A stretch of 64,000 nucleotides of DNA, taken from a virus (Duplodnaviria; Caudoviricetes). The stretch spans positions 18,258-82,257 of the IMG/VR virus record IMGVR_UViG_3300037515_000879, one strand, 5' to 3'. Of this stretch, positions 5,895-48,358 are shown one piece after another. The notes under the pieces were generated by a model. The model was not told the origin of the DNA. It worked only from the letters and a program-made list of their open reading frames with translations, and ran no database searches. A program made the translations under genes and the position numbers. The first letter of the stretch is position 1, and each line of letters starts with the position of its first letter.

Positions 5895-5973
5895 TTGTTT
5901 AAAAGAAAGACATCGTTAGCATATAAATAATATATGGTTCACGATGCCTTTCAAGAAACAGAAGAAGTGCCTA

Positions 5974-6552
5974 TTATCTTATTTCGTGATAAAACGAACT
6001 CTTTTTCTCCAATTTCTGTTCTAACCTTGAAAGACTGTAACCGTTGACAACAGGGGATTCATGATAAATATCCTGGCCCTCAATTCGTTTTGTAAAAGCC
6101 TCAATGTCGTCATTGATGCTTCTCAAATCTTTTTTAAGCTGGGCCATTGTGATGTTTTTTCTTTTTTCATCATTGGAATCCAAGGTATCATACTCCTTTA
6201 TTTGCTGGAGTTTTCTAACCTTTTGGTCATAGTAGATTCGTTTCTCTTCAAGAGTTGGATCATATTGTAGGGCATCATATTTTTTTAAGGCAGATTGAAT
6301 CAATTCAGTGTTCCAATGCCATTTGTTTCTGTCTCCAATAACTTCTTCCTGTGCTTTTTTTGGACGGTCAATGTCATTGTAATATCGGATTGGAGATTGA
6401 TAATCGGCAACAAGTGCAACGGCTGTCAAGCAATAGATTCCATAATCTTCACTTTTCATAAGCTCTCTAAATTCCTTTATGGACAATATGCCATCATCCC
6501 CATCTTCAATGAGCAACAATCCTGTTTTTTTATCTATTCTGGTTAAATACAT
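5974..6552 (-). CDS. Hypothetical protein, possible terminase small subunit
   Basis: 192-aa helical protein immediately upstream of terL; call is positional only. Confidence 0.4.
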   Translation of the reverse strand: MYLTRIDKKTGLLLIEDGDDGILSIKEFRELMKSEDYGIYCLTAVALVADYQSPIRYYNDIDRPKKAQEEVIGDRNKWHWNTELIQSALKKYDALQYDPTLEEKRIYYDQKVRKLQQIKEYDTLDSNDEKRKNITMAQLKKDLRSINDDIEAFTKRIEGQDIYHESPVVNGYSLSRLEQKLEKKSSFYHEIR

Positions 6553-6581
6553 TGTGCTAATGTAATAAAAAAAAGAGGAAT

Positions 6582-10055: not shown

Positions 10056-10340
10056 TTAATAATTGTTTTTGTCTTGGTCAAAGCGTATCAATAGTTTCAT
10101 GCTTTCTGAAACCAAATGATAGGTACCAATATTTTTAAGGTTGATTTTTTCAGCCATATTGATGTGATAATAAATAACCTTTCCAAGTATTGAAGCATCA
10201 AGATCACAGCCTATATGCTCTATAACTCCAACTTCATAATTAAGATTTGATTGCGTTTTATAATCAATCTCTCCCTTTTTGTAGTAATTATTCAAGGGAT
10301 ATACCAACATATCCGTTGGATTTAAATGAATGCCATCCAT
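10056..10340 (-). CDS. groES: Divergent co-chaperonin GroES-like (94 aa)
   Basis: Size and LNP..MLV / GEI / GVIEHIG / GKVIYY / YHLVSES pattern follow GroES strands; near groEL. Confidence 0.65.
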   Translation of the reverse strand: MDGIHLNPTDMLVYPLNNYYKKGEIDYKTQSNLNYEVGVIEHIGCDLDASILGKVIYYHINMAEKINLKNIGTYHLVSESMKLLIRFDQDKNNY

Positions 10341-10366
10341 ACTAATTCTGTTTCTTTTTTCAATAT

Positions 10367-10383
10367 TACGACATTATGACGTA
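10367..10383. promoter_or_regulatory. 17-bp pseudo-palindromic operator, copy 1 (TACGACATTATGACGTA)
   Basis: Near-identical copies at 12236 and 13937 (reverse), each beside a TAnnTTTG box. Confidence 0.65.
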
Positions 10384-10469
10384 ATTACAAAATTATAATT
10401 TCGAGGACGTACATTTGTTCTCCTTTTTCCTTTCTCCCCACTTCTTACCGCCCACAGAAATTATAAAGC

Positions 10470-10506
10470 AAAAGCCCCGTCGATTATGCACTTTGTATCG
10501 CGGGGC
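10470..10506 (-). terminator. Intrinsic terminator
   Basis: GCCCCG...CGGGGC stem followed by a U-tract on the minus strand. Confidence 0.75.
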
Positions 10507-10568
10507 CTCATGGTTGAGTGAAATTAAAATTCAAAGAAAATAAGTTTTGTAAATATATAAAAAAATAA

Positions 10569-10835
10569 TCAATTTTTTTTGGCAGTCAATGAGCCCTTGG
10601 CATGTGATTTACCACTTATTGCGTTCATTGGTTTTGATCCAACAAAGGATATTGGGGGAAGTCCACCTTTTCTAGCCCCACAATGACGACAGGCCATGAC
10701 CTGATTTTCATTGCTCAATTTGAACATCATATATTCATGTAATCCAGAATCGCACTTTAAAACACGATTATTTGTCAGCCTTGGATTTCTTTGTTGTGCT
10801 GACTTTTGCTGATTTTGATTGTTCTTGCTTGTCAT
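10569..10835 (-). CDS. Small basic Zn-ribbon-like protein
   Basis: C-x4-H...ACRHCG. Confidence 0.6.
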   Translation of the reverse strand: MTSKNNQNQQKSAQQRNPRLTNNRVLKCDSGLHEYMMFKLSNENQVMACRHCGARKGGLPPISFVGSKPMNAISGKSHAKGSLTAKKN

Positions 10836-10989
10836 CTTGATTTGCTTTAACTGCGTTTTTTAAATCTATATATCCGACCACATTAGGTCTTTTTCCGCAA
10901 ATGGAACAAGCCACTACGGATTGGGCTCCAGTCTTGAACAGAACGAACACATGTTTGTGTTCAGATTCCTTTTTAGCTTTTTTTGCCAT
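10768..10989 (-). CDS. Small basic Zn-ribbon-like protein (paralogue of neighbour)
   Basis: H-x-H...ACSICG. Confidence 0.6.
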   Translation of the reverse strand: MAKKAKKESEHKHVFVLFKTGAQSVVACSICGKRPNVVGYIDLKNAVKANQDDKQEQSKSAKVSTTKKSKADK

Positions 10990-10991
10990 GA

Positions 10992-11264
10992 TTACCAGTT
11001 GTTTTGTTTTTTAAGTTTCTTAAATATACTTATAATTCCTTGGGTTTGTTGGCCAAGCCAAAATATAAATACCCAAAAAGCTACCGTTCTCCAATTCCTT
11101 CCCTCAAAGATTATCCCAAGATAACTGAAAAAGAAAACACCAAGAACAATAATAGGAACAAGAACATTTGTAAACTTATGCTCTTCCTTTATTTCTACAA
11201 TCCAAGCCTTTACAATAACAAAAATATTGATGATAAAAAGCCAAGAATCTCTAATTACATTCAT
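10992..11264 (-). CDS. Membrane protein (2-3 TM segments)
   Basis: Hydrophobic stretches; promoter at 11287-11294. Confidence 0.7.
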   Translation of the reverse strand: MNVIRDSWLFIINIFVIVKAWIVEIKEEHKFTNVLVPIIVLGVFFFSYLGIIFEGRNWRTVAFWVFIFWLGQQTQGIISIFKKLKKQNNW

Positions 11265-11315
11265 AATATTTGGATTTAAAGTTTACCAAATATAACAAAA
11301 CTATTTTGTTTATAA

Positions 11316-12197
11316 TTAAATGTCCAAATAAACAGGCGTTCCATACTTCTTAAGATTTTCTTTCCTTTGATGGAAAACAGTATCTTCAATCGGATAATTA
11401 AACCATACGACTTCTTGAACCTCTTTTGTCCTTATTCCGTTTTTTTTTGATGGAAAACTTATCTTAGTCCAGTCAGAATATAATTCATTGTACAATTTGG
11501 AATCATAACCCGATATCATCACCTTTCCTTTTAGTTTATGGTTCAGTTCCGCTAATTTGATATGTTTGTTTTGTGGAAACTCATGTGTATAATTGTTCCT
11601 TGAATTCCTGACCGATTCAAGATACGGTGGATCCTCATAAAAGAAAATATCCTTGAAATCCAGTTTCTTTATAAAATCAAAAGCATCATAATTCGTAATC
11701 TGAATTTCTTTTCGCAGCAGCAACGCAACTTTGTGAAGTTTTGGTATAGCATTGTTCCATTTGCTTACAGAAGATCCTTTTTCGGCCAAACAGGTCTTGT
11801 GGCACATATCCCAGCCCTTGTTCTGCCTTGAAGAACCAAGGCCCATGAACGATTGTCTCAATCTTACATAGAAACGCCTGGCATTTTCAATTTTGTCATC
11901 GCTCTTTTCCCAGCACCTCTCATATTCTTCCCTACTGCATGGCGTAAATTCCAATAACCGGATCAGTTCCGGCTCATGATCCCTCAACACCTCAAAGAAA
12001 TTGGTAATATCACAATTGATCTCATTGACGGTTTTAATAATCTTACCTTTATAATTCAGGGTAACAGCAAAACTTCCACCAAAGACATCAGCAAAATGTA
12101 CAAAGTTTACCGGAAAATAATCATATAACTGATCCAGGTAAGTAATCTTTCCACCAAAATAATTGAACGCTATAAGTTTGCTCCTGTTTCCACTCAT
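11316..12197 (-). CDS. dam: Orphan DNA adenine N6 methyltransferase (Dam/D12 class)
   Basis: FNYFGGK, FADVFGGS (motif I), YEDPPY (motif IV), MISGY. Confidence 0.92.
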   Translation of the reverse strand: MSGNRSKLIAFNYFGGKITYLDQLYDYFPVNFVHFADVFGGSFAVTLNYKGKIIKTVNEINCDITNFFEVLRDHEPELIRLLEFTPCSREEYERCWEKSDDKIENARRFYVRLRQSFMGLGSSRQNKGWDMCHKTCLAEKGSSVSKWNNAIPKLHKVALLLRKEIQITNYDAFDFIKKLDFKDIFFYEDPPYLESVRNSRNNYTHEFPQNKHIKLAELNHKLKGKVMISGYDSKLYNELYSDWTKISFPSKKNGIRTKEVQEVVWFNYPIEDTVFHQRKENLKKYGTPVYLDI

Positions 12198-12235
12198 TGA
12201 TCATTGTACTTTTAAAAACAATAGTTGTTCAAACA

Positions 12236-12252
12236 TACGACATTATGACATA
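12236..12252. promoter_or_regulatory. Operator copy 2, overlapping the -7 box (12230-12237) of the methylase promoter
   Basis: TACGACATTATGACATA abuts CAAACATA. Confidence 0.65.
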
Positions 12253-12337
12253 TAAAAAAAGTCTTGCAGATTTTTACCCACAAGACTTTGCCCCAAATCA
12301 AGAACTTTATCTCTAAAGTAATGACATTTCAAATATA
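12253..12337 (-). ncRNA. Candidate ~70-nt small RNA unit (promoter 12330-12337, terminator 12253-12289)
   Basis: TATATTTG box, no ORF, AAAGTCTTG/CAAGACTTT stem and U-tract. Confidence 0.45.
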
Positions 12338-12359
12338 ATGATTTTTGACATATAAAGCC

Positions 12360-12824
12360 CTATCTGTCAGATTTTCTCCAATCACCAACAACAAATTTCC
12401 CATCACTGATATACCATCCTTCCCTTACGGTATCAATAGAAACAATGTCAACAGGAGAAAGATTAAGGGCCAACTGGTTCGGGTTCGGATCGTGGACAAC
12501 TTCCATCTTTTTGTTTATGACAACGGAATGCATAACACCTTCAAACGTCTGGCTCGGAACTGTAGCCTCAAAATAACCACCAATCCCACCATCATAATCC
12601 AACACTTCCAATGTCAGCGAAATATTGTCCTTGCGAACCATATGTGGAGTTACATTCAAATAGCCCATCTTTTTGTAGAAATCCATAAGCATATGATACC
12701 ACTTGCCTTCCCCACCCTTAAAATCAGGAACTTCGTCAATATCCATTTCAAACAACGAGGCCATTGTCGCCCGAAGACAATCCCCATTTTCACCGCACAC
12801 CTGTTTTTGGAACACTTTTTTCAT
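12360..12824 (-). CDS. Hypothetical protein with GDC...H..DP pattern (possible papain-like/C39 fold)
   Basis: GDCLRATMASL and HSVV...HDPNP. Start moved to MKKVFQ (12824) because the longer start runs through a terminator. Confidence 0.6.
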   Translation of the reverse strand: MKKVFQKQVCGENGDCLRATMASLFEMDIDEVPDFKGGEGKWYHMLMDFYKKMGYLNVTPHMVRKDNISLTLEVLDYDGGIGGYFEATVPSQTFEGVMHSVVINKKMEVVHDPNPNQLALNLSPVDIVSIDTVREGWYISDGKFVVGDWRKSDR

Positions 12825-12835
12825 AACAAAATATA

Positions 12836-13114
12836 ACAAAAAGACAGGAACGCTGTCCTGCCTTTTCTTCAACTAACCAATCACCAAGAATCAATACATT
12901 AATCCTTGTGATAAATATATAAAAAAAATCCCGAACATTCACCACCTACTAAAATGAATTCTGCCCGGGATTAATTATTAATAGCATTTAATCGAAGTAC
13001 AACAAATATAATACTTTTTAGTAAACAAAAAAATCCCACATCATTCCTGACATGGGATTGCCCCGAAAGGAGCTGGCAATTAACTAAACTTAAAAATATG
13101 ACCTCGTAAATATA
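12836..13114 (-). ncRNA. Three tandem candidate small RNA units (promoter box, ~70-80 nt, terminator)
   Basis: Boxes at 12912-19, 13003-10 and 13107-14; terminators at 12836-66, 12920-72 and 13027-59. G-U pairs and GGAA/UUCG loops fit minus-strand RNA. Confidence 0.5.
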
Positions 13115-13131
13115 ACTGTTTTTTATAGATT

Positions 13132-13557
13132 TTACTTTTGTTCCAATAATAGATTTGTACCAAAAATATCCTCACTCAACGTATGACCGCTTTTTGTAAT
13201 GGCATAAGGAAAAAATACCTCTGCCATTGAAACAATTTCAGATTCTATTATCGCCATCTGCGCATCGGTCCAAACTTTTACAATACGCAAAGCTGTTCTA
13301 ATAGCCTGTTCCTTTGTCTTGTATTTTTTTGGAACATCAGATTGTTTTTCAAGAACCTTGTACACATTTTCCCAATTGCAAGGCAAACTGTAGTAAATAG
13401 GCTTTCCTTTGTAAAAAATTTCAAACGTTAAAGAAATAGGAAGTCCATTTTCATAATCCACAATAATCTTGTTTGCTGAATGCTCCACCAAATTCTTGGT
13501 AATCTCACCAATGGTCTTTATCGGGTCAACAGTAGTAGTATAATTCAATATAGGCAT
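13132..13557 (-). CDS. Conserved-type phage hypothetical protein (141 aa)
   Basis: Clean ORF (MPILNYTTTVD...). Confidence 0.75.
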   Translation of the reverse strand: MPILNYTTTVDPIKTIGEITKNLVEHSANKIIVDYENGLPISLTFEIFYKGKPIYYSLPCNWENVYKVLEKQSDVPKKYKTKEQAIRTALRIVKVWTDAQMAIIESEIVSMAEVFFPYAITKSGHTLSEDIFGTNLLLEQK

Positions 13558-13936: not shown

Positions 13937-13953
13937 TACGTCATAATGTCGTA
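13937..13953. promoter_or_regulatory. Operator copy 3 (reverse), overlapping the -7 box at 13931-13938
   Basis: TACGTCATAATGTCGTA is the exact reverse complement of copy 1. Confidence 0.65.
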
Positions 13954-14011
13954 TAAAAAAATTTTTATAAAAAAAATAAAAAATGTGAAAAATAGTGCCG
14001 ACGGATGGTTA

Positions 14012-14060
14012 CTACCAAAAATGCCCCCCCTACAATTTCATTTTCGGGGGGGTGGGGTAG
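14012..14060. repeat. C7/G7 inverted repeat at the strand switch
   Basis: CTACC..CCCCCCC (14024-30) / GGGGGGG (14046-52)..GGTAG in an AT-rich genome. Confidence 0.7.
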
Positions 14061-14110
14061 TTTGATGAACATCAAAAAAGAGAGTCCTTTAGGGTAAAGG
14101 ACCGTTAATC
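14061..14110 (+). promoter_or_regulatory. Candidate phage early promoter module A
   Basis: TTTGATGAACATCAAA palindrome, A-tract, GTCCTTT/AAAGGAC hairpin, TAATC; same layout at 15394. Confidence 0.5.
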
Positions 14111-16677: not shown

Positions 16678-17034
16678 ATGACCAGAATCAAACCTTGGGA
16701 AGCCAAGGCATTGAAAGGCAGAATGAGAAAGTTCAAATATTTTGTGGATAGTACTTCACATTATTCACATTTCAATACATTCGAGCCTATACTACAATAC
16801 CAGCCTTCCGATAAGGAAGAGGACTTTAAAGTCCAAGTTGGTGTCAATGGAAAGTTGTGTATGACACGTGAGGAGTTCGATAAATATGGATCGTTGACTC
16901 CTACCGATTATAAGTTCATAAACTTGTACTTTCCTACGGAGACTGTGTTTGAAAGAACGGAACGATTCCTTAAAAAACGAATGGAATCTTACCGACTGCG
17001 ACACAAAGAATATCTAAAACAAAGGGCCTCATAA
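16678..17034 (+). CDS. Hypothetical protein (118 aa)
   Basis: Clean ORF ending in a terminator stem. Confidence 0.75.
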   Translation: MTRIKPWEAKALKGRMRKFKYFVDSTSHYSHFNTFEPILQYQPSDKEEDFKVQVGVNGKLCMTREEFDKYGSLTPTDYKFINLYFPTETVFERTERFLKKRMESYRLRHKEYLKQRAS

Positions 17035-17042
17035 AGAGGCCC
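17019..17042. terminator. Terminator GGGCCTC/GAGGCCC
   Basis: Perfect 7-bp GC-rich stem with a minus-strand U-tract. Confidence 0.7.
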
Positions 17043-17140
17043 AATTGTAAGCTTTGCATAATATCTGTTGCTGAACAACGGGTCAAATATATGAAATAAT
17101 ATTGAATGTTATCAAATAAGATTGATATATAGTATAAATA

Positions 17141-36889: not shown

Positions 36890-39800
36890 TCAATAAAAAC
36901 CATTGATAAGATTTTTTGTTGTTTGTAGTGCTGCAGGAACCATTTTGCTTGTAAGTTTTGGGTAGTTCCAATAATAATTGGTATCCCAGAACAAATCATT
37001 GGCCGTATTGTTTTCCATCATTAAAGCAAGAATAGACGCCATTCCAACTCCTTTAAGTCCACTGTCAAGTCTTTGGCGCTGTTCTTCTGAAAGATTTTTT
37101 CTGTAATTGATAAAATCGTTTGGGTTGTTCATTACATAACGAAGCATTTTACCAACGGCAGTCAATGTTCCAATGGTTTCTTTGCCATAAATATTGACGT
37201 CTTCTTTAGCAAACCTGTCATGTACCATGGTTGGAATGAATCGACTGAATTGTAACATTGCCGTTCCCCAGGAATATAGTTGAATAGCTCGTTGGTCTGT
37301 TGGTTGATATCCTCTACCATGGGATGATTTTACCCTATCTTCGAGTTCTACCAATTTTTCATTGGCAATTTGCATTTCTCCAGTTTTATAATTTCCATGA
37401 TCATCAAATCTATCCAGTTCTTCTTCAGATAGTAGCCCTAACATATGGACTCTTTGAATCCATTCTTCGGATTTTTTCATTGGCATTAAAGCCAAATCTG
37501 CAAATATGCTATCCAATCCATGTTTTTTTTCAATATTTACTTCATCATAAACATTTATTTCCATAAAGTTTAAGTTGCGCAAAATTTTCTGCATGCGCTT
37601 ATGTCTATCAATGACACCTTGAACCCCACCTTTAAATCCTTTATCAAATCCCCAATACCTCAATTCTCCCTGGATCCATTTTTTCCCACCAAGATCTTTT
37701 ACGTTATGATATTTGCCAGCAAGTATATTTCCAACGACATATAATCCACCGGTTTTAACGTTGGCACTATATCCAAGAGCATAAAATAAATTCAGTCTTG
37801 TAAGTCCTAAAACGACCCTATCAGTGGTTTCTCCTAAAAACGAAGTCTGTCTTTTTCCTTTGCTGAAATAATCTTTCCAAACAGTTTTGATATGAATGTT
37901 CATTTGAGGAAGATTATTTTCTTCGTTCCATGCTAAAACTCCATCAATATAGCCTTGTAGTTTTTGCATGCCTTGAAAATTTTTATTTCCATTGACAAAA
38001 AGACTGGAATGTATATAGTCTCCAAGAGCCTTGTTTAAATCCATTGACGGCAGTTCTCTTGCTTTTATTGACCTATTGTTGGCAAATCTGTTGATTGCAC
38101 CAAATCCCAACGCAGTTTCAACAAAAGGAGCGTCTAATAGGATTTTACTTCCATCTTCATTTTTTCCTTCTTTTAAAAGCGTTTTGGCTTTGTTTCTATA
38201 ATTTCTATATTCCTTTATTTTTTGAAGATCGTTTTTGAAACCTCTCGCAGATTGATATTTATAAAAATCCTCAATCTGTTTAAAGTTGACAAGCTCTCCA
38301 TTGAATTTCATTTTTATGTCATATACTGCTTGGTCTGGATGTCTTGAGTTTACCATAAGTCCAAGAAGTCCACGATTTGAAAAAACTTCCAATTTTGTCA
38401 TTGAGGTATGTGGAATATAATCTTTTTCCTCTTTTTTAATGTCATCTGGTTTTAATTCTTCAGTTGTTTTTCTAAAGTAATCATAAAAATCTTTTTCGGC
38501 TTTTGATAAAAATCCGTTATTAAAAGCTTTTTCGATTTCATCTATAGGACGTAATCTAAAATTTGTAATCAACCTACCTTGATCGTCCAGCCCTTCTTCT
38601 CTTATTACAAGATTTCCATATAATCTATCATAAATTTCCTGTCTGTTTGAAAATAGAGAATCTTTGATTCTTGATAATACATTTTTAAATGTTGTTGTTG
38701 CACCATAACCAAGTTTTTCTTTATAAAGGGCATCGGTTATTTTGTTCATGTCTTGAATATATTTTTTATTTTCATTGATAAATTTTTTGTATTCGATTTC
38801 CATCAATCTTGCCATGCCTTGACTTGCAGGATGATTTGACGGTATCGTAGATCCAGACATCATATAGGCTTTTATTACATTAATATCTTCAACATTTTCT
38901 TTGGCAACAACTCCATTTTTTCTAAAAAGTTCTGATTGTCGACTTGATAGATGTCTGACCAGTTGTTTGACAATAGGAGTAATAATTCCTGAATAAGCAT
39001 AAACATCACGTTCTCCGAATGTTTTGTACATCTTAAGCAATTGTTCAGAGGTTTTGTTTTCAAGATTCTTTAAAACACCTTTATCTATTAGATTGTTTGC
39101 TTTTTGTTTTTCGGCAGTATATTGTTGGTACATATTCAGTCTTATTGCCGGAGAAACGTATGGTTTGAATTCCATTGCCTTTTCATATTCAGATTGGTTC
39201 AATGGAATAATGCTTGTAAATTTATCAATATAAAAATCTTCTCTTGCATCAAGTCCTATTTCTTTTTCTTCGGCGTTTCTTCGAATTTTCGCCATGATTT
39301 CATCATAATTTATTGATGCTTCAACTAAATAATCTAAATATTCCTTATTTTTTCCTTCATCATAAACAGACCATGGTGTTCCAAGATTTTTATCCTGAAT
39401 GGTTGAAAGATTGATATCCCCGTTTTCAATAAGATTATTTGGAATTTCTTCAATCTTTGTTTTTGCTATCATAATGACACGTTCTTCTTTTTGTTTTAAT
39501 GTTCGTTCAGAAGTAACTTGTGCTATTTCTTCAGGTGTAAAATTTTTCATTTCATAAAGCCTTCGGTCTTTTCCTTTTATAACATTGATATAAACCGGTT
39601 GGCCTTTTGAGATTTTATCATATAGATTTTCATTTTTTAATATTCTATCTATAACTCCTGATTTGTTGTTGAAATTAAGTTCTTTTTCAAGATATACTTT
39701 ATGGAAAGGATTGTTTTGTTGCTTTGATGCTCTTAATGCAATAATACGTTCAAGTTCATTTTCAACACTTGGAGAAAGGGCTGTATGTTTGTCCTGAACA

Positions 39801-42800
39801 CTTACTGTTGAATAATGATTGATAAGCCAATTGGTTTCCTTTCCAAAAAAAGGAGCCAATGAAAACGGGCCTTTCCATCCATTTTTGATTAAATCATAAA
39901 GAATAAGGTCGTTCCTTAATTCTTCTGGAAGTTCCATAAATTCCTCTTGGGCTCGCTCCCTTTCAATTTCATTAAAACTGTCATTTACAAAAGAGGTGTT
40001 TGCTGATATGTATTTTTTTTGCTGTATAGGCCCATCAAGGTTGAGATCTAAAGCTTGTTGAAACAACACGCTATTGTTCAGCATTGTCCAATGTTGTTTT
40101 ACGTCTTTTGAGTCTTCATTGATTTGGGTGCGCAGATAATCCAGATAAACATTCATTTTATTGAATATTGATTCTTTATTATTTGGATCTGTGCTCATTA
40201 AATTCTCAACATATTCAATAGGTTTATTGTTAAGGTTCAACAATCTTGATGTTTTGAATTTTAAAATGTCTTTTGATATAGCTTCAATTTGAGTGGCTGA
40301 CAAATCATTTCCTATTTTATCTGTTAATGATTTAAGAACTTTTTTGGTGGCATCAGTATAAACCGTATTAAGATCTATTTGCCCCTTTAATGTTTGTCTT
40401 GCCACGTAAATATAATGTTGCATATCTGGATTTGACCTGAATTCACTTGTTAATTCAAGTGTTTTATTTTCAGAATCATTTTTGATTACATTATCAAAAT
40501 CATTGATTTGTTTTTCAAGAACCAATGGATTAACATGTATTTTGTTATGGCCGCCCATTATGGTTGATATTTTTTGGATTTCAGAATTCATGTCTGATAG
40601 GTAATCCAAAAGCTCTACAACAGATGATTGGTTTGGTCCAATAATATGGATGTTTGATAATGAAATTTTTAAAGACTTAATTTTGTTTTCTTTTATTTTA
40701 AGCCTATTATAAATTTCTTCCTTAATTTTTGATTTTGTTTTGCTTTGATGATATAGACTACTATTGTTTCTATTGAGTTCGCTCCAAAGTTTTGCTGCTG
40801 GAGAATTTAATATCAATCCTACTTGTTCCAATGGTATTCCCATGTTGATCATTAAAGCTGCTTGTGAAATGTTATATTCATTGAGCCCAAGATTATCGGC
40901 AAATAAATGTTTGGCATTATCAAGTATGATATTGGCTAGAATTGCAGATTGCATATTTCTACTTGCATTGCCTTTTTTATCATCATTGAACGTATCATAA
41001 ACGACACCATCTATTTTAATTGGTTTTGTGATTTTAACATTGGTAGCGGCTAGAATATTTGCTATTTTATGGATATTAAAAACGGGACCTATACTTCTTT
41101 TTGAAACCATTGTATTATTATAGTCAATCATTCTTGCTTTTGGAGAAAATGGTATTGTATAATCTTTATTTGAAGGAAAAACTTTGTTTACATTTTCTAT
41201 GATTTTTTCAGTTTCTTTTTCGAACAACATTTTGGTTGTAACTTGATCTGCCATTTCAGGAGAGAGCCAATAGTTTGCTATCAAATCAAAAGCTTGGTTC
41301 CATTTACCATAATCTTTATAGATTTTTATATTGGTGTTGGCCTTTGTTTGTATAAACAAAGCATCCCCATCATTGTCAGATCCTATGATTTCATTGAATT
41401 CTCCAGAAACCATTGTTTGGTTTCCTTGGCCTTGATCAAATCCTAAAACTTCAAACACTCCTGTTGAACTTGGTCCGTGTCCAGGAACGCGAGAAATTAT
41501 AACACTATCGCCTTTGACATGATATCCAATATGGACATTGTTTTTGTCATATTCTTTTCCAATAAATTTTTCAGCATCTTTTCTATTGACATTATGGCGT
41601 TTTTGTGCAAGGTCTAAAGCTGCTTTTTTTAGATCAAGATGTAAATCCAAAATAAAATCTTCTCCTGATTTTGATTTTTGGCTTTTTGCCATACCAGCCT
41701 TTGCGTTTTTCATTGCAGCTTGTCCGGCCAAAGTGTTCATGGTCAACAATGTTCTGGCATTGGATTTATCTTCCATGTGTTTTGGAAGTATTATTTCTGC
41801 AGCAGTAAGGCTTCCATCACTGTTTTTTGTATAGCCCTTTAACGCACTATTTCCTTTAGCTTGGGTTCTCCATCCCAAATCTGGTTTTTGGTGCGCATAA
41901 GTACCAGGGGTAACAAGTTTATTTCCGGCACGTCTTATGGTTTTGGCTAATTGATTTACGACGATTTCATTGATATATGGATGTGCTAAAGAACCATTGT
42001 CTTGAAGCATTATTCTTTGAGCTTGGTTCATGTCTTCATAATTCAGACCTTCCTTTATTATTTTTTCATAGTCTTCAATACTTCCTTCCTTGATTTGATC
42101 AAGTGTTTTTTGAAGATTGATTTTTTTCTGTTCGGCAATGAGGGATTGTATTTGATTGGCCAATTCAACCTTTCCATTTATTGAAGCGTTGACAATGACC
42201 GAATTAATCATTTGAACCGGTGTGTTTACGCGTTCATTTTTTTTGTCCATCAATTGTTGGGGACCGAAATTATAAGCATTAAGACCTAAAAAATTTCCTT
42301 TTTTATCATAATAAAGATTATCATAATAAGTCATTGCTTCGTCAATGTTTTCATTTAATGCTTCATGTGAAAAATTATGTTCATTGAATCCATCAGGTAT
42401 TAAATTGGATTTATCGGATGATTGTGGAATAGCAATTGGAATATGGTTAAATGTGCCATCTGTCAAATCTTCTGAAAGATTTGTTCCAAATTGATCTTGG
42501 TGCCATTTTTCATATTTTTCAGATCTTGCATTTAATATTTTATAAAGAGGATGTGTTTTGCCAACTATTGTGGTATAGCCTTTTAAATAGGCTGTTTTAC
42601 CTTTAAATTTAGGGTTGTCTTTTTCAACACTTGCATTTAAAAACTTAAATCCACCGTTCATATCAAACAATCCCATTCCAAGACGTTGAAACATTTTAGC
42701 GTGTTTTTCCAAAATAAACATTCCAGAATCTGTTCCGGCTTTGCTTCCATTGATTATTTCGTCTTGAAAAAATATGGGCTCGATTTTAAGATTTGGATTT

Positions 42801-45800
42801 TTGACTGACATTACAGGAGAGGAATTCATTTTAAAACGTTTTGCAATATTTTTTCCTTCAATGCCAGGTGCAAACGTATCTATGATATTATATCCATTTA
42901 CAATATTGTTTATGGTGTATTCCGCAATGGTTTCAACTCCTTCTTTTGTAAGTTTTCCTTTATTATCAAAAAGTGTTTTTGTCAATTCAATTTGCATCAA
43001 TTCTTTTGCATTTTGTCTAACAAATAGTATTTGATTGTTCATGGCATCCCTGAAAGCATCCCTGAATTTTCTTTTGTTATTGGATGTTTCGTCAGCAAAG
43101 CTGTTATTATGGATATTGAATATACTATTGATGACCTCTCCATTTGGATTGAATTGTATGTTTCCATTTTTATAAACAAAGACATCATTGAAATCAATGC
43201 GTTTCATGTTCATAAAGAATTTTCTTGGAGAATCAGCAAAGGTTCCAATATTGCCTAAATAACTATTAAGTTTGTTTCCTTTTGCACCTTTTGACGTTTG
43301 TAAAAATGTCAACATATCCTCAATGTTCTGTTCAAGTGCAGTACTGTTTTTATAAAGGCTTCCTTTTTGATTGTCAATATCTTCCAATCCATGATATTGT
43401 GATATCGTTGGTAGTATTCCGTCTTGGAACTGTTCATAAATATTTACAAGGAATTGATTTGGAACAAAAGATTTTCCAAGTTCTTTTTTGTTTGGATATG
43501 ATATATGTGAAAATCTGTCCAAAAATTGTTCAAGTGTTGGTTTACCATTTTCATTACCATGTAAAAACGATATGATATTATCGATTTCCTGTGTAAGATG
43601 ATTGTTGGTAATTCTTACCGGTTCCATGTTCTGTTCTGCGTTTTTAACTGAACTGAAAGGAGAATATTTTCTATTTGTGTTTACTAATGCCTCTATAAGT
43701 GGTCTAGCGTTTGCATAAAACACCTGTATTGAGTTTTTATCCAAACTTCCGTCTTCATTTCTATTAAAGGCGATATCCCCTTTTTTGGTTTTATTGAACA
43801 ATAACTGTTTGTTGATAAATCCTTTTATTAAGGTTTCGATTGGGATATTGATGCCTTTATAAGTAATATAACCATCTTGCTGAAGTTTATGCAATTTCAA
43901 ATTTCTTGGGGCCAACATTTGCACGACACGCATGATGTCTTTTGATTCTGGTGCTGTGGAATTATAGATTCTGTTTACGGCGGCTTCAAAATTTTTCCAT
44001 TCAGTTCCAGCATTTCTGTTAGTAAAGGCATATTTCATTCTGGAAAGAACGTTTTCAACAAGAGTTCTATCTTTATTTGAAAGTGAATTTACAAATTCAT
44101 GCTTTCCATTATTGTTAATGGTATTTCTAAACCCAACAATGTGTTTGGCGTTTGAAAGTACATAGTGCATAGATCCCAATAATTGATATTTGTTGTTTGG
44201 AAACATTTTGTCCAAATATCTATTGAAAGCCTGTATTTCTTCATAAGCAGAATTTTCTATTTGGAATATAAATTCATCTGGAGTATTGTTTTCTTTTGCC
44301 AAACCATAAATTTCGGATTCAAACAATTCTCTGTCAAATAATTTGAATTTGGCTCTATTGGTTACACTGTCCTTGGTTTCTATAAGATTTTTGGTACGCA
44401 ATGTTTTATTGTAAACAATACCAAATCGTCTCAAAACTCTTGATGTCGTTTTGACTTTACTGTCAAAATCTTTATCAAAAAACATTTGTCCGTCATTTTC
44501 AAGAGCATCATCAACAGCATCAAGTCTATCAATTTCCTCGATTTCTGAATTGAAGGATTCAGGAACAGGATTGTCTATTTGTTGAAGTCTTTTGATATGG
44601 ATTTTTTCAACTTCCTGACGATATTGGTCATCAAGTTCTTCTGTTCTGGCATCCATTCCAAATCCCGACATATTTACATTTTTGGTTGCTTTTTTGAATT
44701 GATCGAGAACAAAGCTTCTTAAATCTCCTTGAGGTACGTTTTCTTCACCGTGCAATTGTTTGAGTATTTTTTCAGAACCATTGCCTTCTTCAATTATAGC
44801 TCCTTTTTGGCGCAATAATCCCCACCATTTTTTTACTTCTTTTTGTCTGATGATTTCTTTTCTGGCATTGAAAAGAGAATCTGTCGTTGACGTTAAAGGC
44901 TTTTCGAGATATTCGACGAAAATTTCTTCCAAGATGTATTTCTGTTGTGCAAATGGCATTTTTTTGACATCACCTTCAGATATCATTTTTTCCAAAAATC
45001 CTTCAAGTTGATTTAGGTCAGCGCCTTCTTGTGCAAAATAATTTAGTAATTGTGATTTCGTAACAGGAATTGAACCATTCGGAACCTTTAATTCATATAA
45101 CGTATAATCATCATATAATTTTGATATTTTATCAACAAGCTCTTTATTTTTTAAAGCTTCGTTTAAAGCGTTTTGTGTGCCTGGTTCATTTTGGGTCAAT
45201 TGATAAAAAACATGAGACATTTCATGCATAAATATATTTTCCTGTTCCCAAGCTTTTTCATCAATATATATTGTTCCCAAAAGCGTATGCCCAAGACCTT
45301 GTGATCCCATTGCTTCATATAGATTTTTTACAATAATAACTTGTATTGGATCGTTCATATTGGGAAACATTCTTTTCAATTGGTGGTTTATTACCGCCAT
45401 TTTATGAATGTTGTTTGGACCATATATGTTTTGAAGTGATGATGAATTTAAATAATTGTCAAGTTCATTTGGAGATATTGTTTCTCTATCTTTAATGGTT
45501 TTGCTTTTATTGAGCTTTTTGATAAAGTCTTGAGCTTTTTTATAGGATAGGATATTTATTTTTGAAATATTTATTCCTTTTTGTCTTTTATCAAAACCGG
45601 CCTTTTTTTCGGTATCTTCAAAGTGTTCAGGTTTTGCATTGAATTTTTTGGCAGCCTCTTCATTTTTTTCTTTTTCGCCCTCTTCAATGGTTTTTCCTTT
45701 TTTTGTTTTGGTTGCTTCTTCTTTAATAAATTCAGATTCTTCCTTTGAAAGATTTTTATCTTCTTTTGGAGCGACATTTTCAACAGCTATGGATTCAATA

Positions 45801-48358
45801 GCTTGATCCAGTTCGCTCATTGCCTTCTTGGATGGCTTCTTGTTCGTTTTATTGGAAATAACGTCATAGCCGTCATCTGTGCGCTTAATGGAGACGTTAT
45901 GGGTCCTTTCCAGTTCTTTTATATCGTTGTCGCTTAAATTGTCAATGATGCTCGGTTTTTTGTTTTTCTTTTTTTCTGTGCCAAGTGTCAATTTAACAAT
46001 ACGATCGAGAATATCATCTTTATTGGCTTCTTGAATAGATGTTTCTCTTTCAGACAATCCTTCTTTATTGTTCACTCTTTTTGCGATGTCATCTAAAATG
46101 TCATCCGGTACAAATCCGCTTTTTTCAAATTCAGAATATATTTCATCATCGATTGATTCAAGATTGCCTTTTGGCTTTTCTTCTTTTTCAATTTCCGATT
46201 CTTCCGATTGCTTTTTGGTTTCATCGGTATTTTCAGAAATATCTTCTTCAGATTCAGGCTCTTCTTCTGTTTTTTCTTTTGATTTGAAAACATTGGAAAC
46301 TTTATCTTTTAAACCTTCAAATAAACTAAGACCTTTATCAACAATTTTATTATAGGCATCTTTTCCAGACTGTTTAAGATTTCCATATTTAAGCTCAATC
46401 ATTGATGGCGCGTTTTCTTCTCCTTCTTTTGTAAGTGAAAAATAATCTTCTGTGGAAAGTCCACCAATCAACATATTGTTTCCATATTCATCTTTTACAA
46501 TGTCAATGGTCAATGGAGAGGCTTTTTCTCCGATGATAAGATTTGCCTGATTTTGTTTTGCTTCGGCCAATAACAATGAAGCACCTTTGAGCCTTGAAGC
46601 AAAAATGTTTTCTATTTTTGAAATTTGTTTTTCTTTTTGCGCTTCGGTAAGCATGTCATTACTTTTGATTTCCTTGATATTGTCTTCTGCTATTTGTCTA
46701 AATTCTTCAATTTGACTTTCTGCATAGGTTTGTTTGGCATTGTTCATCAAAAGCGATTGCAATCCTTTTATATTGAGTTTTTCTCCTTTGGCCTTTACTT
46801 CTCTAAAATTTTTGATCATTTCAGCATATATAGGAACTTGTTCTTCAGTGATGTTTCCGCGTTCAACAAGACCGTCCATAAAATCTGAAAAGGCTTCCTC
46901 TTTATTGTCAATGACAATATCAGCAATGGTTTTTTGAATATGGTATTTTTGCCATTCCAGTTCTTCTTTTGAACCATGTCCATTGATTATTTCTGTAAGA
47001 TTGGCTGTTCTGTCATATAGTCTATAATTATCATTTGCTTTTTTATTGAAAAGGCTTTTGATATTGAAAGTTCCACCGGCAAGTGCGCCCATAGCAGCAG
47101 AAATAACTTTGGTTGCTTGGTTTTCTTTTGAATTGAAAAACTCAAAAAAATCATTGTGGTATGGCATTTCTTCTCCTGTAATTTCTGCATATGCTCTTTT
47201 TTTGGACCATTCCTCAAAACTTTCCTGATACATTTCTTCAATGCCTTCAGGAATTGCTTTTCCAGCAACTCTTCCGAGCCCTTTTATAATTGGAGAAACT
47301 TCAAATGAAAATGCCTTTCCTATATTTTTTAGTGATTGTCCATTTGAAAGCAATTTTCCGCCTTTTGATATAGGGTTTAAACTTTTTAATAATTGGCCAC
47401 CTTTACCAAACGTAAATCCCCAAGAAGCCATATCTATAGCTAACCATTCTGCATTGTTTTTAACAGTGCTTGATGCTAATTGTGCCAATTCTTCTTCATT
47501 AAAAACAAGATTGCCGTAATCATCTTTTAAATCCTTATTTTGATTGACAAGTTCGGCTGCATTTTGCATACCAGAAAATATGTTTCCTGTAAGACCACCA
47601 CCAATTGTATTGAAAATAGCTTTACCCGTAGCTGTCAATCCAATATCTGTTGCCAATTTTCCAGCCAAACCACTTCCTGTTCCAACAATGGATTCTCCAA
47701 GTGCTGTTTTTGTAGCTCCAGGTAAATGTTTCATTAAACGCCCACCAAGTTTTGTGGCTGCCCCGGCACCAGCTTTTGCCAAGAAAAGATATTGTACCAC
47801 ATTAGGAACAAGTTCGGCTATTTTTACACTCCAAAACTTTGGATTCATCATTGTTGACCAATTGATTTCTTCTTCTTTTAATTCCTCTGGAATATAGGTT
47901 TTGAATTTTTCAGCAAAATCAGTTCCCGCATTTTGTAGTGCTTCAGAAACAAAAGTTCCTTTTATCAATCGTTCATCCAAAAGACCACCTATGACCTGTA
48001 ATAAATCTCCAGAACCTTTTATGACATCATTTCCAACGCCCCTCATAAGACTGTTTCCAACTTCATCCAAAAAATCCTTATCGGAATATTCCGGACTCAT
48101 TGTTGTTGGATCATCAAAACGTTCTCGTGTTGTTTGGGTTGATAGCGCTCCGGTAAACTGATTGGCCAAAGCAGTATTTTTTTGCCTTTGGTTTTGTTCT
48201 TCATCTATTGATGTAGTTCCATCGATACCTAATTCCTGTTCAAGACCTTTTTCTTTACCATATTCATATAGGCTTTCTTCTTGTTCTGGAATTTGTTCTT
48301 GCTCTTTTTGTTTTGATTTTTCTTTTTGCTGATAGTACAGCTCTACTAGATCTGGCAT
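36890..48358 (-). CDS. Giant virion-packaged two-barrel RNA polymerase (~3822 aa) with a zincin-like HExxH domain
   Basis: SRVPGHGPSS...NEIIGSDNDGDALF (DxDGD at 41363-41377), HEMSH at 45212-45226, cargo-gene context. Start set at MPDL, downstream of a promoter (48382) and a terminator (48391-48416). Confidence 0.85.
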   Translation of the reverse strand: MPDLVELYYQQKEKSKQKEQEQIPEQEESLYEYGKEKGLEQELGIDGTTSIDEEQNQRQKNTALANQFTGALSTQTTRERFDDPTTMSPEYSDKDFLDEVGNSLMRGVGNDVIKGSGDLLQVIGGLLDERLIKGTFVSEALQNAGTDFAEKFKTYIPEELKEEEINWSTMMNPKFWSVKIAELVPNVVQYLFLAKAGAGAATKLGGRLMKHLPGATKTALGESIVGTGSGLAGKLATDIGLTATGKAIFNTIGGGLTGNIFSGMQNAAELVNQNKDLKDDYGNLVFNEEELAQLASSTVKNNAEWLAIDMASWGFTFGKGGQLLKSLNPISKGGKLLSNGQSLKNIGKAFSFEVSPIIKGLGRVAGKAIPEGIEEMYQESFEEWSKKRAYAEITGEEMPYHNDFFEFFNSKENQATKVISAAMGALAGGTFNIKSLFNKKANDNYRLYDRTANLTEIINGHGSKEELEWQKYHIQKTIADIVIDNKEEAFSDFMDGLVERGNITEEQVPIYAEMIKNFREVKAKGEKLNIKGLQSLLMNNAKQTYAESQIEEFRQIAEDNIKEIKSNDMLTEAQKEKQISKIENIFASRLKGASLLLAEAKQNQANLIIGEKASPLTIDIVKDEYGNNMLIGGLSTEDYFSLTKEGEENAPSMIELKYGNLKQSGKDAYNKIVDKGLSLFEGLKDKVSNVFKSKEKTEEEPESEEDISENTDETKKQSEESEIEKEEKPKGNLESIDDEIYSEFEKSGFVPDDILDDIAKRVNNKEGLSERETSIQEANKDDILDRIVKLTLGTEKKKNKKPSIIDNLSDNDIKELERTHNVSIKRTDDGYDVISNKTNKKPSKKAMSELDQAIESIAVENVAPKEDKNLSKEESEFIKEEATKTKKGKTIEEGEKEKNEEAAKKFNAKPEHFEDTEKKAGFDKRQKGINISKINILSYKKAQDFIKKLNKSKTIKDRETISPNELDNYLNSSSLQNIYGPNNIHKMAVINHQLKRMFPNMNDPIQVIIVKNLYEAMGSQGLGHTLLGTIYIDEKAWEQENIFMHEMSHVFYQLTQNEPGTQNALNEALKNKELVDKISKLYDDYTLYELKVPNGSIPVTKSQLLNYFAQEGADLNQLEGFLEKMISEGDVKKMPFAQQKYILEEIFVEYLEKPLTSTTDSLFNARKEIIRQKEVKKWWGLLRQKGAIIEEGNGSEKILKQLHGEENVPQGDLRSFVLDQFKKATKNVNMSGFGMDARTEELDDQYRQEVEKIHIKRLQQIDNPVPESFNSEIEEIDRLDAVDDALENDGQMFFDKDFDSKVKTTSRVLRRFGIVYNKTLRTKNLIETKDSVTNRAKFKLFDRELFESEIYGLAKENNTPDEFIFQIENSAYEEIQAFNRYLDKMFPNNKYQLLGSMHYVLSNAKHIVGFRNTINNNGKHEFVNSLSNKDRTLVENVLSRMKYAFTNRNAGTEWKNFEAAVNRIYNSTAPESKDIMRVVQMLAPRNLKLHKLQQDGYITYKGINIPIETLIKGFINKQLLFNKTKKGDIAFNRNEDGSLDKNSIQVFYANARPLIEALVNTNRKYSPFSSVKNAEQNMEPVRITNNHLTQEIDNIISFLHGNENGKPTLEQFLDRFSHISYPNKKELGKSFVPNQFLVNIYEQFQDGILPTISQYHGLEDIDNQKGSLYKNSTALEQNIEDMLTFLQTSKGAKGNKLNSYLGNIGTFADSPRKFFMNMKRIDFNDVFVYKNGNIQFNPNGEVINSIFNIHNNSFADETSNNKRKFRDAFRDAMNNQILFVRQNAKELMQIELTKTLFDNKGKLTKEGVETIAEYTINNIVNGYNIIDTFAPGIEGKNIAKRFKMNSSPVMSVKNPNLKIEPIFFQDEIINGSKAGTDSGMFILEKHAKMFQRLGMGLFDMNGGFKFLNASVEKDNPKFKGKTAYLKGYTTIVGKTHPLYKILNARSEKYEKWHQDQFGTNLSEDLTDGTFNHIPIAIPQSSDKSNLIPDGFNEHNFSHEALNENIDEAMTYYDNLYYDKKGNFLGLNAYNFGPQQLMDKKNERVNTPVQMINSVIVNASINGKVELANQIQSLIAEQKKINLQKTLDQIKEGSIEDYEKIIKEGLNYEDMNQAQRIMLQDNGSLAHPYINEIVVNQLAKTIRRAGNKLVTPGTYAHQKPDLGWRTQAKGNSALKGYTKNSDGSLTAAEIILPKHMEDKSNARTLLTMNTLAGQAAMKNAKAGMAKSQKSKSGEDFILDLHLDLKKAALDLAQKRHNVNRKDAEKFIGKEYDKNNVHIGYHVKGDSVIISRVPGHGPSSTGVFEVLGFDQGQGNQTMVSGEFNEIIGSDNDGDALFIQTKANTNIKIYKDYGKWNQAFDLIANYWLSPEMADQVTTKMLFEKETEKIIENVNKVFPSNKDYTIPFSPKARMIDYNNTMVSKRSIGPVFNIHKIANILAATNVKITKPIKIDGVVYDTFNDDKKGNASRNMQSAILANIILDNAKHLFADNLGLNEYNISQAALMINMGIPLEQVGLILNSPAAKLWSELNRNNSSLYHQSKTKSKIKEEIYNRLKIKENKIKSLKISLSNIHIIGPNQSSVVELLDYLSDMNSEIQKISTIMGGHNKIHVNPLVLEKQINDFDNVIKNDSENKTLELTSEFRSNPDMQHYIYVARQTLKGQIDLNTVYTDATKKVLKSLTDKIGNDLSATQIEAISKDILKFKTSRLLNLNNKPIEYVENLMSTDPNNKESIFNKMNVYLDYLRTQINEDSKDVKQHWTMLNNSVLFQQALDLNLDGPIQQKKYISANTSFVNDSFNEIERERAQEEFMELPEELRNDLILYDLIKNGWKGPFSLAPFFGKETNWLINHYSTVSVQDKHTALSPSVENELERIIALRASKQQNNPFHKVYLEKELNFNNKSGVIDRILKNENLYDKISKGQPVYINVIKGKDRRLYEMKNFTPEEIAQVTSERTLKQKEERVIMIAKTKIEEIPNNLIENGDINLSTIQDKNLGTPWSVYDEGKNKEYLDYLVEASINYDEIMAKIRRNAEEKEIGLDAREDFYIDKFTSIIPLNQSEYEKAMEFKPYVSPAIRLNMYQQYTAEKQKANNLIDKGVLKNLENKTSEQLLKMYKTFGERDVYAYSGIITPIVKQLVRHLSSRQSELFRKNGVVAKENVEDINVIKAYMMSGSTIPSNHPASQGMARLMEIEYKKFINENKKYIQDMNKITDALYKEKLGYGATTTFKNVLSRIKDSLFSNRQEIYDRLYGNLVIREEGLDDQGRLITNFRLRPIDEIEKAFNNGFLSKAEKDFYDYFRKTTEELKPDDIKKEEKDYIPHTSMTKLEVFSNRGLLGLMVNSRHPDQAVYDIKMKFNGELVNFKQIEDFYKYQSARGFKNDLQKIKEYRNYRNKAKTLLKEGKNEDGSKILLDAPFVETALGFGAINRFANNRSIKARELPSMDLNKALGDYIHSSLFVNGNKNFQGMQKLQGYIDGVLAWNEENNLPQMNIHIKTVWKDYFSKGKRQTSFLGETTDRVVLGLTRLNLFYALGYSANVKTGGLYVVGNILAGKYHNVKDLGGKKWIQGELRYWGFDKGFKGGVQGVIDRHKRMQKILRNLNFMEINVYDEVNIEKKHGLDSIFADLALMPMKKSEEWIQRVHMLGLLSEEELDRFDDHGNYKTGEMQIANEKLVELEDRVKSSHGRGYQPTDQRAIQLYSWGTAMLQFSRFIPTMVHDRFAKEDVNIYGKETIGTLTAVGKMLRYVMNNPNDFINYRKNLSEEQRQRLDSGLKGVGMASILALMMENNTANDLFWDTNYYWNYPKLTSKMVPAALQTTKNLINGFY

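Follow-up and report, generated by a model that had tools for sequence, protein, structure and literature searches.

Promoter-to-terminator mini-units without open reading frames in the variable early region of a Bacteroidota phage: candidate accessory small-RNA genes

Five protein-less mini-units (U1-U5), perhaps six, lie on the minus strand of an 82-kb phage of Bacteroidota, each running from a promoter-like box to a terminator. This raises the question of whether such units are genes for small RNAs, junctions between accessory genes or what is left of lost genes. The window analyzed is a stretch of 64,000 nt of the virus record IMGVR_UViG_3300037515_000879 (positions 18,258 to 82,257). The five units of the original prediction were all found in their places, and a sixth of the same build, which had been missed, was detected as a candidate (U6). 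The units and the elements between them are:

13026..13114, minus strand: unit 5 (U5), starting 17 nt past the stop of a 141-aa gene; box TATATTTA at 13114-13107, small hairpin at 13073-13060, motif TTCGGGGCAA at 13067-13058, terminator stem at 13057-13034 (GGAA loop), T-run at 13033-13027
12920..13010, minus strand: unit 4 (U4); box TATATTTG at 13010-13003, AU-rich body, terminator with an imperfect 42-nt stem at 12970-12929 and a T-run of 8
12829..12919, minus strand: unit 3 (U3); box TATATTTA at 12919-12912, strong 5' hairpin at about 12912-12880, terminator at 12867-12838, T-run merging into the next box
12822..12835, minus strand: box TATATTTT(G), with the true ATG (12824) of a 154-aa gene 2-3 nt downstream
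12360..12824, minus strand: 154-aa accessory gene (phrog_5845; conserved Cys and His), between U3 and U2
12253..12337, minus strand: unit 2 (U2), starting 22 nt past the stop of the 154-aa gene; box TATATTTG at 12337-12330, motif TTTGGGGCAA at 12297-12288, terminator stem at 12286-12261 (AAAA loop) followed by a T-run
12237..12251: 15-bp operator, a pseudo-palindrome that adjoins the MTase promoter box immediately past the U2 terminator
11274..11300, minus strand: promoter box and 5' leader of a small-gene operon
10466..10557, minus strand: unit 1 (U1), starting 11 nt past the stop of an 88-aa gene; box TATATTTA at 10557-10550, terminator stem at 10506-10474, weaker T-run
17016..17091, minus strand: candidate unit 6 (U6); box at 17091-17084, 41-nt body with a small hairpin, terminator (ending at 17016) shared with a convergent plus-strand gene

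A hairpin with a T-run lies downstream of each of the five boxes, and fold z-scores of U1-U5 range from -2.2 to -4.3 compared with shuffles. Counted from the first nucleotide of the box through the 8-nt window used to score the T-run, the units are 88 (U5), 89 (U4), 90 (U3), 84 (U2) and 91 nt (U1) long, and these near-identical lengths of 84-91 nt speak for small-RNA genes, since scars of random deletions should vary. The stems contain G-U pairs, as had been predicted, which would be C-A mismatches on the opposite strand; this points to RNA structures of the minus strand. A GGAA loop was indeed found in the U5 terminator, whereas the UUCG loop claimed alongside it was not (the small U5 loop is UUUC). 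Upstream of the terminator, folding left U1, U4 and U5 mostly open, in agreement with the 5' halves having been described as unstructured, but U3 and, more weakly, U2 form an additional 5' hairpin. No credible ORF was detected in the units under table 11, TAG=Q or table 4, and since the alternative genetic codes gave nothing credible, a reading as recoded ORFs was rejected. The units are not paralogues of each other apart from a motif common to U2 and U5: TTYGGGGYAA occurs three times in 82 kb, twice directly 5' of the terminators of these two units.

The TATATTT(G/A) boxes were next compared with their other occurrences in the genome. Three of the five unit boxes end in A (the TTTA variants of the original prediction, borne out by the box sequences), the consensus being G, and a clear -33 element is not present at them. 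Of 38 boxes in the genome, 16 lie in intergenic DNA, which makes up 6.5% of the sequence, corresponding to an enrichment of about 10-fold, and 13 of these 16 have the same orientation as the next gene. In every lineage examined, a core gene before TerL is preceded by a terminator and a box, with its ATG 4-7 nt after the box, so that transcription must begin near the box. By these measures of placement, the boxes behave as real -7 promoters of Bacteroidota would. Only 7 of the 38 are followed by a strict terminator at a distance of 45-130 nt, and all seven pairs belong to the minus strand and fall between 10.4 and 17.1 kb. The units thus combine in silico what generally marks an sRNA gene, an own promoter, an own terminator and no ORF. 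No terminator precedes the boxes of U1, U2, U5 and U6.

The genes around the units have promoter signals of their own. Each gene downstream of a unit has its own box, and three also have an operator; sister copies of the 15-bp operator are located at 10368-10382 and 13938-13952 (3 matches; 0.02 expected), and a scan of IMG/VR with the 15-nt sequence gave matches at chance level only. U1 is placed ahead of GroES/GroEL and the packaging/structural block, and other nearby genes encode a Dam methylase and a peptidase-like protein. The box directly before the ATG of the 154-aa gene looks like a leaderless arrangement, the choice of this ATG being based on the N-terminus MKKVFQ, which is kept in 26 homologues. 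An identical 154-aa protein is carried by two other contigs.

Known RNA families and possible targets were then searched for. An Rfam search had been suggested with the original prediction; no family was matched at gathering score in the whole window, nor at E<=10 in 10200-13300, including FopS and GibS, and ARAGORN detected no tRNA or tmRNA. It had also proposed that the RNAs block Shine-Dalgarno-independent initiation regions. When the units were paired with 97 phage translation-start regions, none performed clearly better than shuffled units; the strongest pairing was that of U6 with its own upstream gene, at about 2 sd. The initiation-like sequence to which U5 had been said to be complementary turned out to be the reverse complement of U5 itself and is absent elsewhere in the window. 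The longest antisense match in the phage was 13 nt.

For GroEL, TerL and portal, the relatives are phages of Bacteroidota. Those compared have a TerL 58-70% identical to that of the window and carry the same unit design in the same variable early region. In the relative L184 (TerL 70% identical), 561 nt at this position comprise five ORF-poor units in tandem, of which unit A holds a 19-codon ORF. L183 has three units, one of them 150 nt long, highly structured (z -4.4) and located behind an operator-like palindrome. L165 and L166 have one unit, and no substitutions separate them in 218 nt around it, compared with about 3% divergence in the flanks. This speaks for small-RNA genes, but the block also includes a terminator, an operator and a promoter, and it could reflect recent recombination. 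Synteny of the array is anchored by the leader at 11274..11300, which matches 26/27 nt of the sequence directly after unit E of L161/L184. This unit E is the homologue of U2: the two have a 16-nt block in common, followed by stems that differ in sequence, and a G-run motif occurs in U2, U5 and L184-E alike. Local alignment gave z 3.8 for U2 versus L184-E and z 3.5 for U4 versus its weak homologue L184-B, values that stem from 30 comparisons and are only moderately convincing. Most unit bodies are unalignable between the window and L184, indicating fast turnover.

Further searches yielded little beyond these relatives. A DNA search of the phage collection gave no match, and GroEL as a single query no loci. 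The 16-nt block of U2 and E had one real match in IMG/VR, the L161 contig, the others lying in coding DNA; a conserved 23-nt promoter/leader was likewise found in IMG/VR only in the L161 contig, and not in bacterial genomes. The flanking 141-aa and 154-aa genes belong to mobile families present in unrelated phages, where neither synteny nor adjoining units were seen around the homologues. TerL gave nothing in bacterial genomes and hence no clue to the host.

The slots themselves differ in content between relatives. L161 and L184 are 99.9% identical but set apart by a 102-aa gene whose insertion point is exactly a TATATT box, so that the slot of the 154-aa gene holds an unrelated 102-aa gene in L161 and nothing in L184. 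The gene-free form of L184 has no scar at the indel site (one case only), and it follows that box-to-box recombination does not yield empty units with unique bodies. An integron attC-type reading was rejected, as this sole indel junction lies in a TATATT box with no GTTRRRY core there. The U1 slot contains a 130-aa gene in the nearest relative, L161/L184, where the flanks are homologous and the leader is similar, and for this reason U1 may be an emptied cassette. To this unit the counter-proposal that the units are scars of deleted genes may apply. The slot is ORF-less in L165/L166 and L183, and ORF-less units are found there in both subclades; their multiple alignment is AU-rich and unconvincing, and sequence homology at this position is tentative.

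Because of the promoter-like boxes, the uniform predicted length, the ORF-less units in relatives, the U2 homologue and the motif in U2 and U5, the units look like independent small-RNA genes. In this the original prediction holds, whereas its specific mechanisms (blocked initiation regions, sponging of RNA-binding proteins, RNAP decoys) gained no support from anything computed. We assign a probability of about 0.5 to a reading as accessory genes for small RNAs whose boundaries are fused terminator-promoter modules, one of these being a site of scarless gain or loss of a gene cassette, as at the stem-loop modules of T4. As similar rows of units occur at the same place in related phages, regulatory RNAs of ~70 nt are most likely made from them, judging by sequence comparison. 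The phage itself is of a virulent type and infects Bacteroidota, probably an aquatic member and not Bacteroides. Host RNA polymerase with the primary sigma factor would start a few nt after each TATATTTR (-7 type) box and the intrinsic terminator would end transcription, giving RNAs of roughly 65-75 nt. In each, a variable 5' portion (30-45 nt, either unpaired or with one small hairpin) would precede a terminator hairpin, which is the usual layout of trans-acting sRNAs in Bacteroidota. U1, U2, U5 and U6 lie within the 3' end of the upstream transcription unit and use the same terminator, comparable to 3'-UTR sRNAs with an own promoter; U3 and U4 stand alone. The setting is a hypervariable early/accessory segment whose slots have fused junctions (hairpin, T-run, TATATT...) as boundaries, and a gene cassette was gained or lost without a scar at one of them. 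The sequences show the anatomy of the units, the promoter-like behaviour of the box, an array design and some sequence conserved in relatives, and one indel of a cassette at a box. What we infer is that transcripts arise from the units and act by pairing with mRNAs, probably of the host, or by binding a protein.

The closest counterparts in the phylum are the FopS and GibS sRNAs of Bacteroides thetaiotaomicron (RF04319, RF04182; PMC11697453). They resemble the units in being small stand-alone, multicopy genes with a promoter of the Bacteroidota sigma-A type, and one FopS copy was reported in a phage (PMC11697453). Membership of FopS/GibS would call for a conserved R1 seed and for binding by RbpB (PMC11697453). 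The phage units differ in that they match no Rfam model, are not mutual paralogues except for the U2/U5 motif and probably belong to a different, aquatic host. In the crAss-like phage phi14:2, also a Bacteroidota phage, the early genes begin with ORF-free regions whose transcription exceeds that of most genes and which have no known function (bioRxiv 10.1101/2020.03.07.982082). These are 0.7-1.7 kb long, with tRNA T-arm-like elements and one terminator-like site each; lacking similarity in sequence or design to the 70-nt units, they were rejected as the same element.

The main alternative, possible although on the unlikely side, is that the junctions are functional and the RNAs are not. The 50-60-nt bodies would then be what remains of lost genes, or neutral spacers, with short transcripts as by-products, while the junctions insulate accessory genes and serve as short homology patches through which cassettes are gained and lost, like the documented promoter-early stem-loops (PeSLs) of T4-type phages (PMC2839356, PMC4122927). 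As in PeSLs, a composite terminator hairpin is directly joined to a promoter and repeated in a hyperplastic region of small variable genes, and the indel between the near-identical L161 and L184 stops exactly at such a module, in one case. The junctions of the window, L184, L165 and L183 share a T-run followed by TATATT, and one window junction is identical over 19 nt to L165/L166. The varying slot contents (154-aa, 102-aa or nothing), the gene between homologous flanks in the U1 slot of L161/L184 and the unalignable bodies also fit this explanation. However, one junction per gene would suffice, and three stand in a row before a single gene; four boxes (U1, U2, U5, U6) have no terminator in front; and scarless recombination at boxes leaves empty slots with unique bodies unexplained. 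The uniform unit length, the conservation between U2 and E, the motif in U2 and U5, and the ORF-less units at the U1 position in both subclades likewise argue against it. PeSLs are found on either side of protein genes; here, several slots contain nothing but an ORF-less body, and phage group, host and promoter type differ (T4-type myovirus with a sigma-70 early promoter versus a Bacteroidota-like one). The unit junctions are an analogue of PeSLs, not a member.

Improbable is a role as cis-acting switches, in which transcription ends prematurely at a promoter-proximal terminator unless a phage antiterminator permits read-through into downstream genes, as with lambda PR'-6S RNA-tR' and Q. Lambda OOP and 6S (PR'-tR') RNA are short phage transcripts with an own promoter, an intrinsic terminator and no ORF, OOP being antisense to the adjacent gene and 6S a substrate of Q antitermination. 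ORF-less units do lie upstream of same-strand genes, U1 even ahead of the GroES/GroEL and structural block, and the hairpin with T-run ahead of TerL is conserved in every lineage examined. Yet the downstream genes have boxes of their own, three tandem units are redundant for a single switch, and no Q-, N- or other antiterminator-like protein was detected among ten neighbouring proteins scanned, although a distant analogue is conceivable. Unlike OOP and 6S, the units lack an overlapping antisense target and a recognisable antiterminator, and they stand in a row. Slightly more improbable still are decoy RNAs, be they mimics of host CRISPR repeats (Racr-like), antidotes to RNA-sensing defence or sponges of RNA-binding proteins. 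The fast-turnover accessory position beside the host-interaction genes for the Dam methylase and the peptidase-like protein, the shared G-run motif and the missing antisense target in the phage would suit them, but the units differ from each other and no single mimic is repeated. Micro-peptides are the least credible explanation, as the ATG-started frames of U4 (12 aa), U1 (16 aa) and L184 unit A (19 aa) face frames that enter or cross terminator stems, only 2-4 codons in U2 and U3, no frame common to U2 and its homologue E, and nothing credible under alternative genetic codes.

Small-RNA genes bounded by fused modules are the reading we favor. A wider claim, that the clade keeps fast-evolving small-RNA 'morons', self-contained promoter-body-terminator cassettes swapped, gained or lost at fused junctions like small protein genes, we consider doubtful. 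Bacteroidota mostly do without Shine-Dalgarno sequences, and the biology of their sRNAs is just beginning to be explored; to our knowledge they lack chaperones of the Hfq/ProQ type. On sRNAs encoded by their phages, almost nothing was found in searchable papers. Even if the RNAs are non-functional, the locus would still be a clear case outside T4 of terminator-promoter modules that mediate scarless gain and loss of cassettes. If the units are expressed, Bacteroidota phages have, among their exchangeable accessory cassettes, small regulatory RNAs arranged in rows, which would provide a handle on how these phages reprogram their hosts. Should the 'moron' reading be true, such lineage-specific RNA sets would serve host takeover or counter-defence and may represent a so far undescribed but widespread class of RNA weapons in phages.

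The units lie on a single contig of 82,257 bp with 33% G+C, which encodes a phage portal, a large terminase (TerL), GroEL, a DnaB-type helicase, a Dam-type methylase and a 3,822-aa ORF, and whose GroEL has its nearest counterparts in Flavobacterium, Bacteroides and Cellulophaga phages (36-40% identity). Quick checks of the 3,822-aa ORF (36890-48358, minus strand) revealed neither a PHROG match nor a DFDxD motif, leaving an identity as crAss-type virion RNA polymerase unsupported. Leftward (minus-strand) genes extend from about 13.9 kb via small accessory genes, GroES/GroEL and the terminase to the portal, placing the unit array, which is surrounded by small, poorly conserved genes, at the head of this block; rightward genes start at about 15.5 kb. 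The divergent control region (13983-14103, minus strand) carries a hairpin formed by C7 and G7 runs, and similar C/G runs occur at the equivalent place in the related phage loci L164 and L167.

Units of the array
10466-10557, minus strand: unit 1 (U1)
12253-12337, minus strand: unit 2 (U2)
12829-12919, minus strand: unit 3 (U3)
12920-13010, minus strand: unit 4 (U4)
13026-13114, minus strand: unit 5 (U5)
17091-17016, minus strand: candidate sixth unit of like design

All five units of the original prediction (U1-U5) were present as described. Each opens with a TATATTT(G/A) box and closes with a strong hairpin and T-run, and the 50-60-nt bodies contain no credible reading frame under table 11 or with TAG read as Q or TGA as W. 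The terminator stems have 2-3 G-U pairs apiece and therefore fold only in minus-strand RNA. Box-to-terminator distances, measured to where the 8-nt T-run scoring window ends, are strikingly uniform (88, 89, 90, 84 and 91 nt). Genome-wide, only seven boxes have a strict terminator 45-130 nt downstream; all seven, the sixth unit included, are on the minus strand at 10.4-17.1 kb. The motif TTYGGGGYAA has three copies in the whole genome, two of them directly before the terminators of U2 and U5. Some predicted details were not borne out: the 5' half is not unstructured in U3, which has a strong 5' hairpin, nor fully so in U2, which has a weaker one, the small loop of U5 is UUUC instead of UUCG, and the proposed initiation-like target of U5 is just its own complement, with no other occurrence.

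Base composition does not account for the box, since 16 of its 38 copies are intergenic although intergenic DNA makes up 6.5% of the genome, and 13 of these 16 face the next gene. It fits the Bacteroidota -7 element, TAnnTTTG. At several genuine genes, a box of this type is located 20-38 nt ahead of the ATG. The promoters named in PMC11697453 are canonical sigma-ABfr promoters only. In all lineages examined, a terminator and a box stand before the 192-207-aa core gene that adjoins TerL on its upstream side, with the ATG 4-7 nt after the box. The 154-aa gene between U3 and U2, whose N-terminus was confirmed by 26 homologues, is built in the same way, its ATG following the box by 2-3 nt.

Boxes with near-adjacent ATG
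6552-6581, minus strand: core gene before TerL (same gene in L164, L165, L167, L169 and L183)
12822-12835, minus strand: 154-aa gene

This suggests leaderless or near-leaderless mRNAs in the phage clade. With such spacing, the only sensible option is a transcription start within a few nt of the box, and unit RNAs would therefore be about 65-75 nt long.

A 15-bp pseudo-palindrome, ACGWCATWATGWCGT, adjoins the -7 box of three promoters, those of the 94-aa gene, the Dam methylase and the first leftward gene (10368-10382, 12237-12251 and 13938-13952; three matches versus 0.02 expected), and probably serves as a repressor operator. Palindromes of a similar kind stand before boxes in L164, L165, L167, L183 and L184, once ahead of an ORF-less unit. 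The 154-aa protein (12360-12824, minus strand) belongs to the widespread phage family phrog_5845, and its invariant Cys16, His99, His111 and Asp112 suggest that it is a small peptidase or amidase of the thiol type; the collection gene call (P0001, 134 aa) misses the first 20 codons.

The flanking accessory genes, being mobile, led to unrelated phages when used as queries; true relatives were found via the terminase and form two TerL subclades that are about 60-63% identical to each other.

TerL subclades
Subclade 1: window, L163, L184/L161; 70-75% TerL identity
Subclade 2: L164, L165/166, L167/168/178, L169, L183; 64-68% TerL identity

The gene order 94-aa gene, GroEL, TerL is conserved in these relatives. 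Searches of bacterial genomes with TerL and the conserved promoter/leader did not recover the clade. Every lineage examined has, directly before the TerL start codon, a hairpin and T-run in which pairing is kept while stem bases change, and which might serve the packaging genes as a conserved attenuator or regulatory hairpin.

Hairpin and T-run before TerL
5901-5948, minus strand: window
6321-6356: L161
9949-9990: L165
9947-9991: L167
5756-5789: L169
9950-9990: L183

L184 harbors five tandem box-to-terminator units (A-E) in 561 nt, with a 19-codon frame in unit A as sole ORF, directly upstream of a small-gene operon promoter also found in the window (26/27 nt identical). Unit E is a homologue of U2: the two have the same box and share 16 nt immediately 5' of their terminators, whose stems differ in sequence. 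Local alignment gave z 3.8 for U2 and unit E, and z 3.5, with agreeing unit order, for U4 and unit B; each is one of 30 comparisons and only moderate. Three ORF-less units were found in L183, one of them 150 nt long with a folding z of -4.4 against shuffles and located behind an operator-like palindrome. L165/L166 have one unit, inside a 218-nt block without substitutions whose flanks are about 3% diverged. A further such slot, L164 250-490, consists of an operator-controlled promoter, about 230 ORF-free nt and a terminator; it contains two tRNA-like elements with acceptor-like stems and GGTTCGA T-loops, below ARAGORN and Rfam thresholds (tRNA-Sec model, 17.8 bits). T-arm-like elements, GTTCGAATCC, also occur in phi14:2 non-coding regions.

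U1 is the weak member of the array. In L161/L184 its slot, with homologous flanks including a purine-rich tract and operator, holds a 130-aa signal-peptide gene, which follows a similar box and leader and is itself followed by a terminator. As the slot is ORF-less in the other subclade (L165/166, L183), the ORF-less state is ancestral or recurrent; similarity among the slot versions is AU-rich and unconvincing. The purine-rich tract (G/A runs; window 10400-10455, minus strand; L184 3565-3600; L165 5490-5520) lies between the U1 terminator and the 94-aa gene operator-promoter, a position conserved across subclades.

Rfam searches matched no family to the units, including the Bacteroides thetaiotaomicron sRNAs FopS and GibS, and no tRNA match was obtained. 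Antisense to phage genes was rejected (longest match 13 nt), as was identity with phi14:2-type long early non-coding regions, which bear no resemblance. No phage start region paired clearly better with units than with shuffled units, and no computation supported a particular target or mode of action, those originally proposed included. A literature search found no published description of such arrays in Bacteroidota phages.

L161 and L184 are 99.9% identical phages, and a 102-aa gene is present only in L161 (L161 50-408 versus L184 2024-2033), its insertion point falling precisely on the TATATT of the box that separates unit D from unit E. Gene-free L184 bears no scar, and the pair represents a naturally occurring, scarless polymorphism of a cassette. 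In the window the same slot is occupied by the unrelated 154-aa gene, and a Dam methylase gene that L184 lacks, served by an operator-promoter of its own, lies between U2 and the operon promoter. Fusion of a terminator T-run to the following box is found throughout, one such junction being identical over 19 nt in L165/L166. These junctions and the cassette indel follow the same logic as the promoter-early stem-loop (PeSL) modules of T4-type phages (PMC2839356, PMC4122927).

Taken together, the units are best read as putative small-RNA genes, at a probability of about one half, because of their anatomy, promoter evidence, uniform length, shared motif and ORF-less occurrence in both subclades. 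The main rival, in which the junctions are the whole explanation and the transcripts do nothing, is less likely; bearing on it, box-box recombination removes a gene cleanly and is therefore not by itself the source of slots that are empty but have unique bodies of 50-60 nt. Attenuation switches, decoys and micro-peptides carry little weight as alternatives. A PeSL-like insulator or recombination role of the junctions has good support and can coexist with small-RNA genes.
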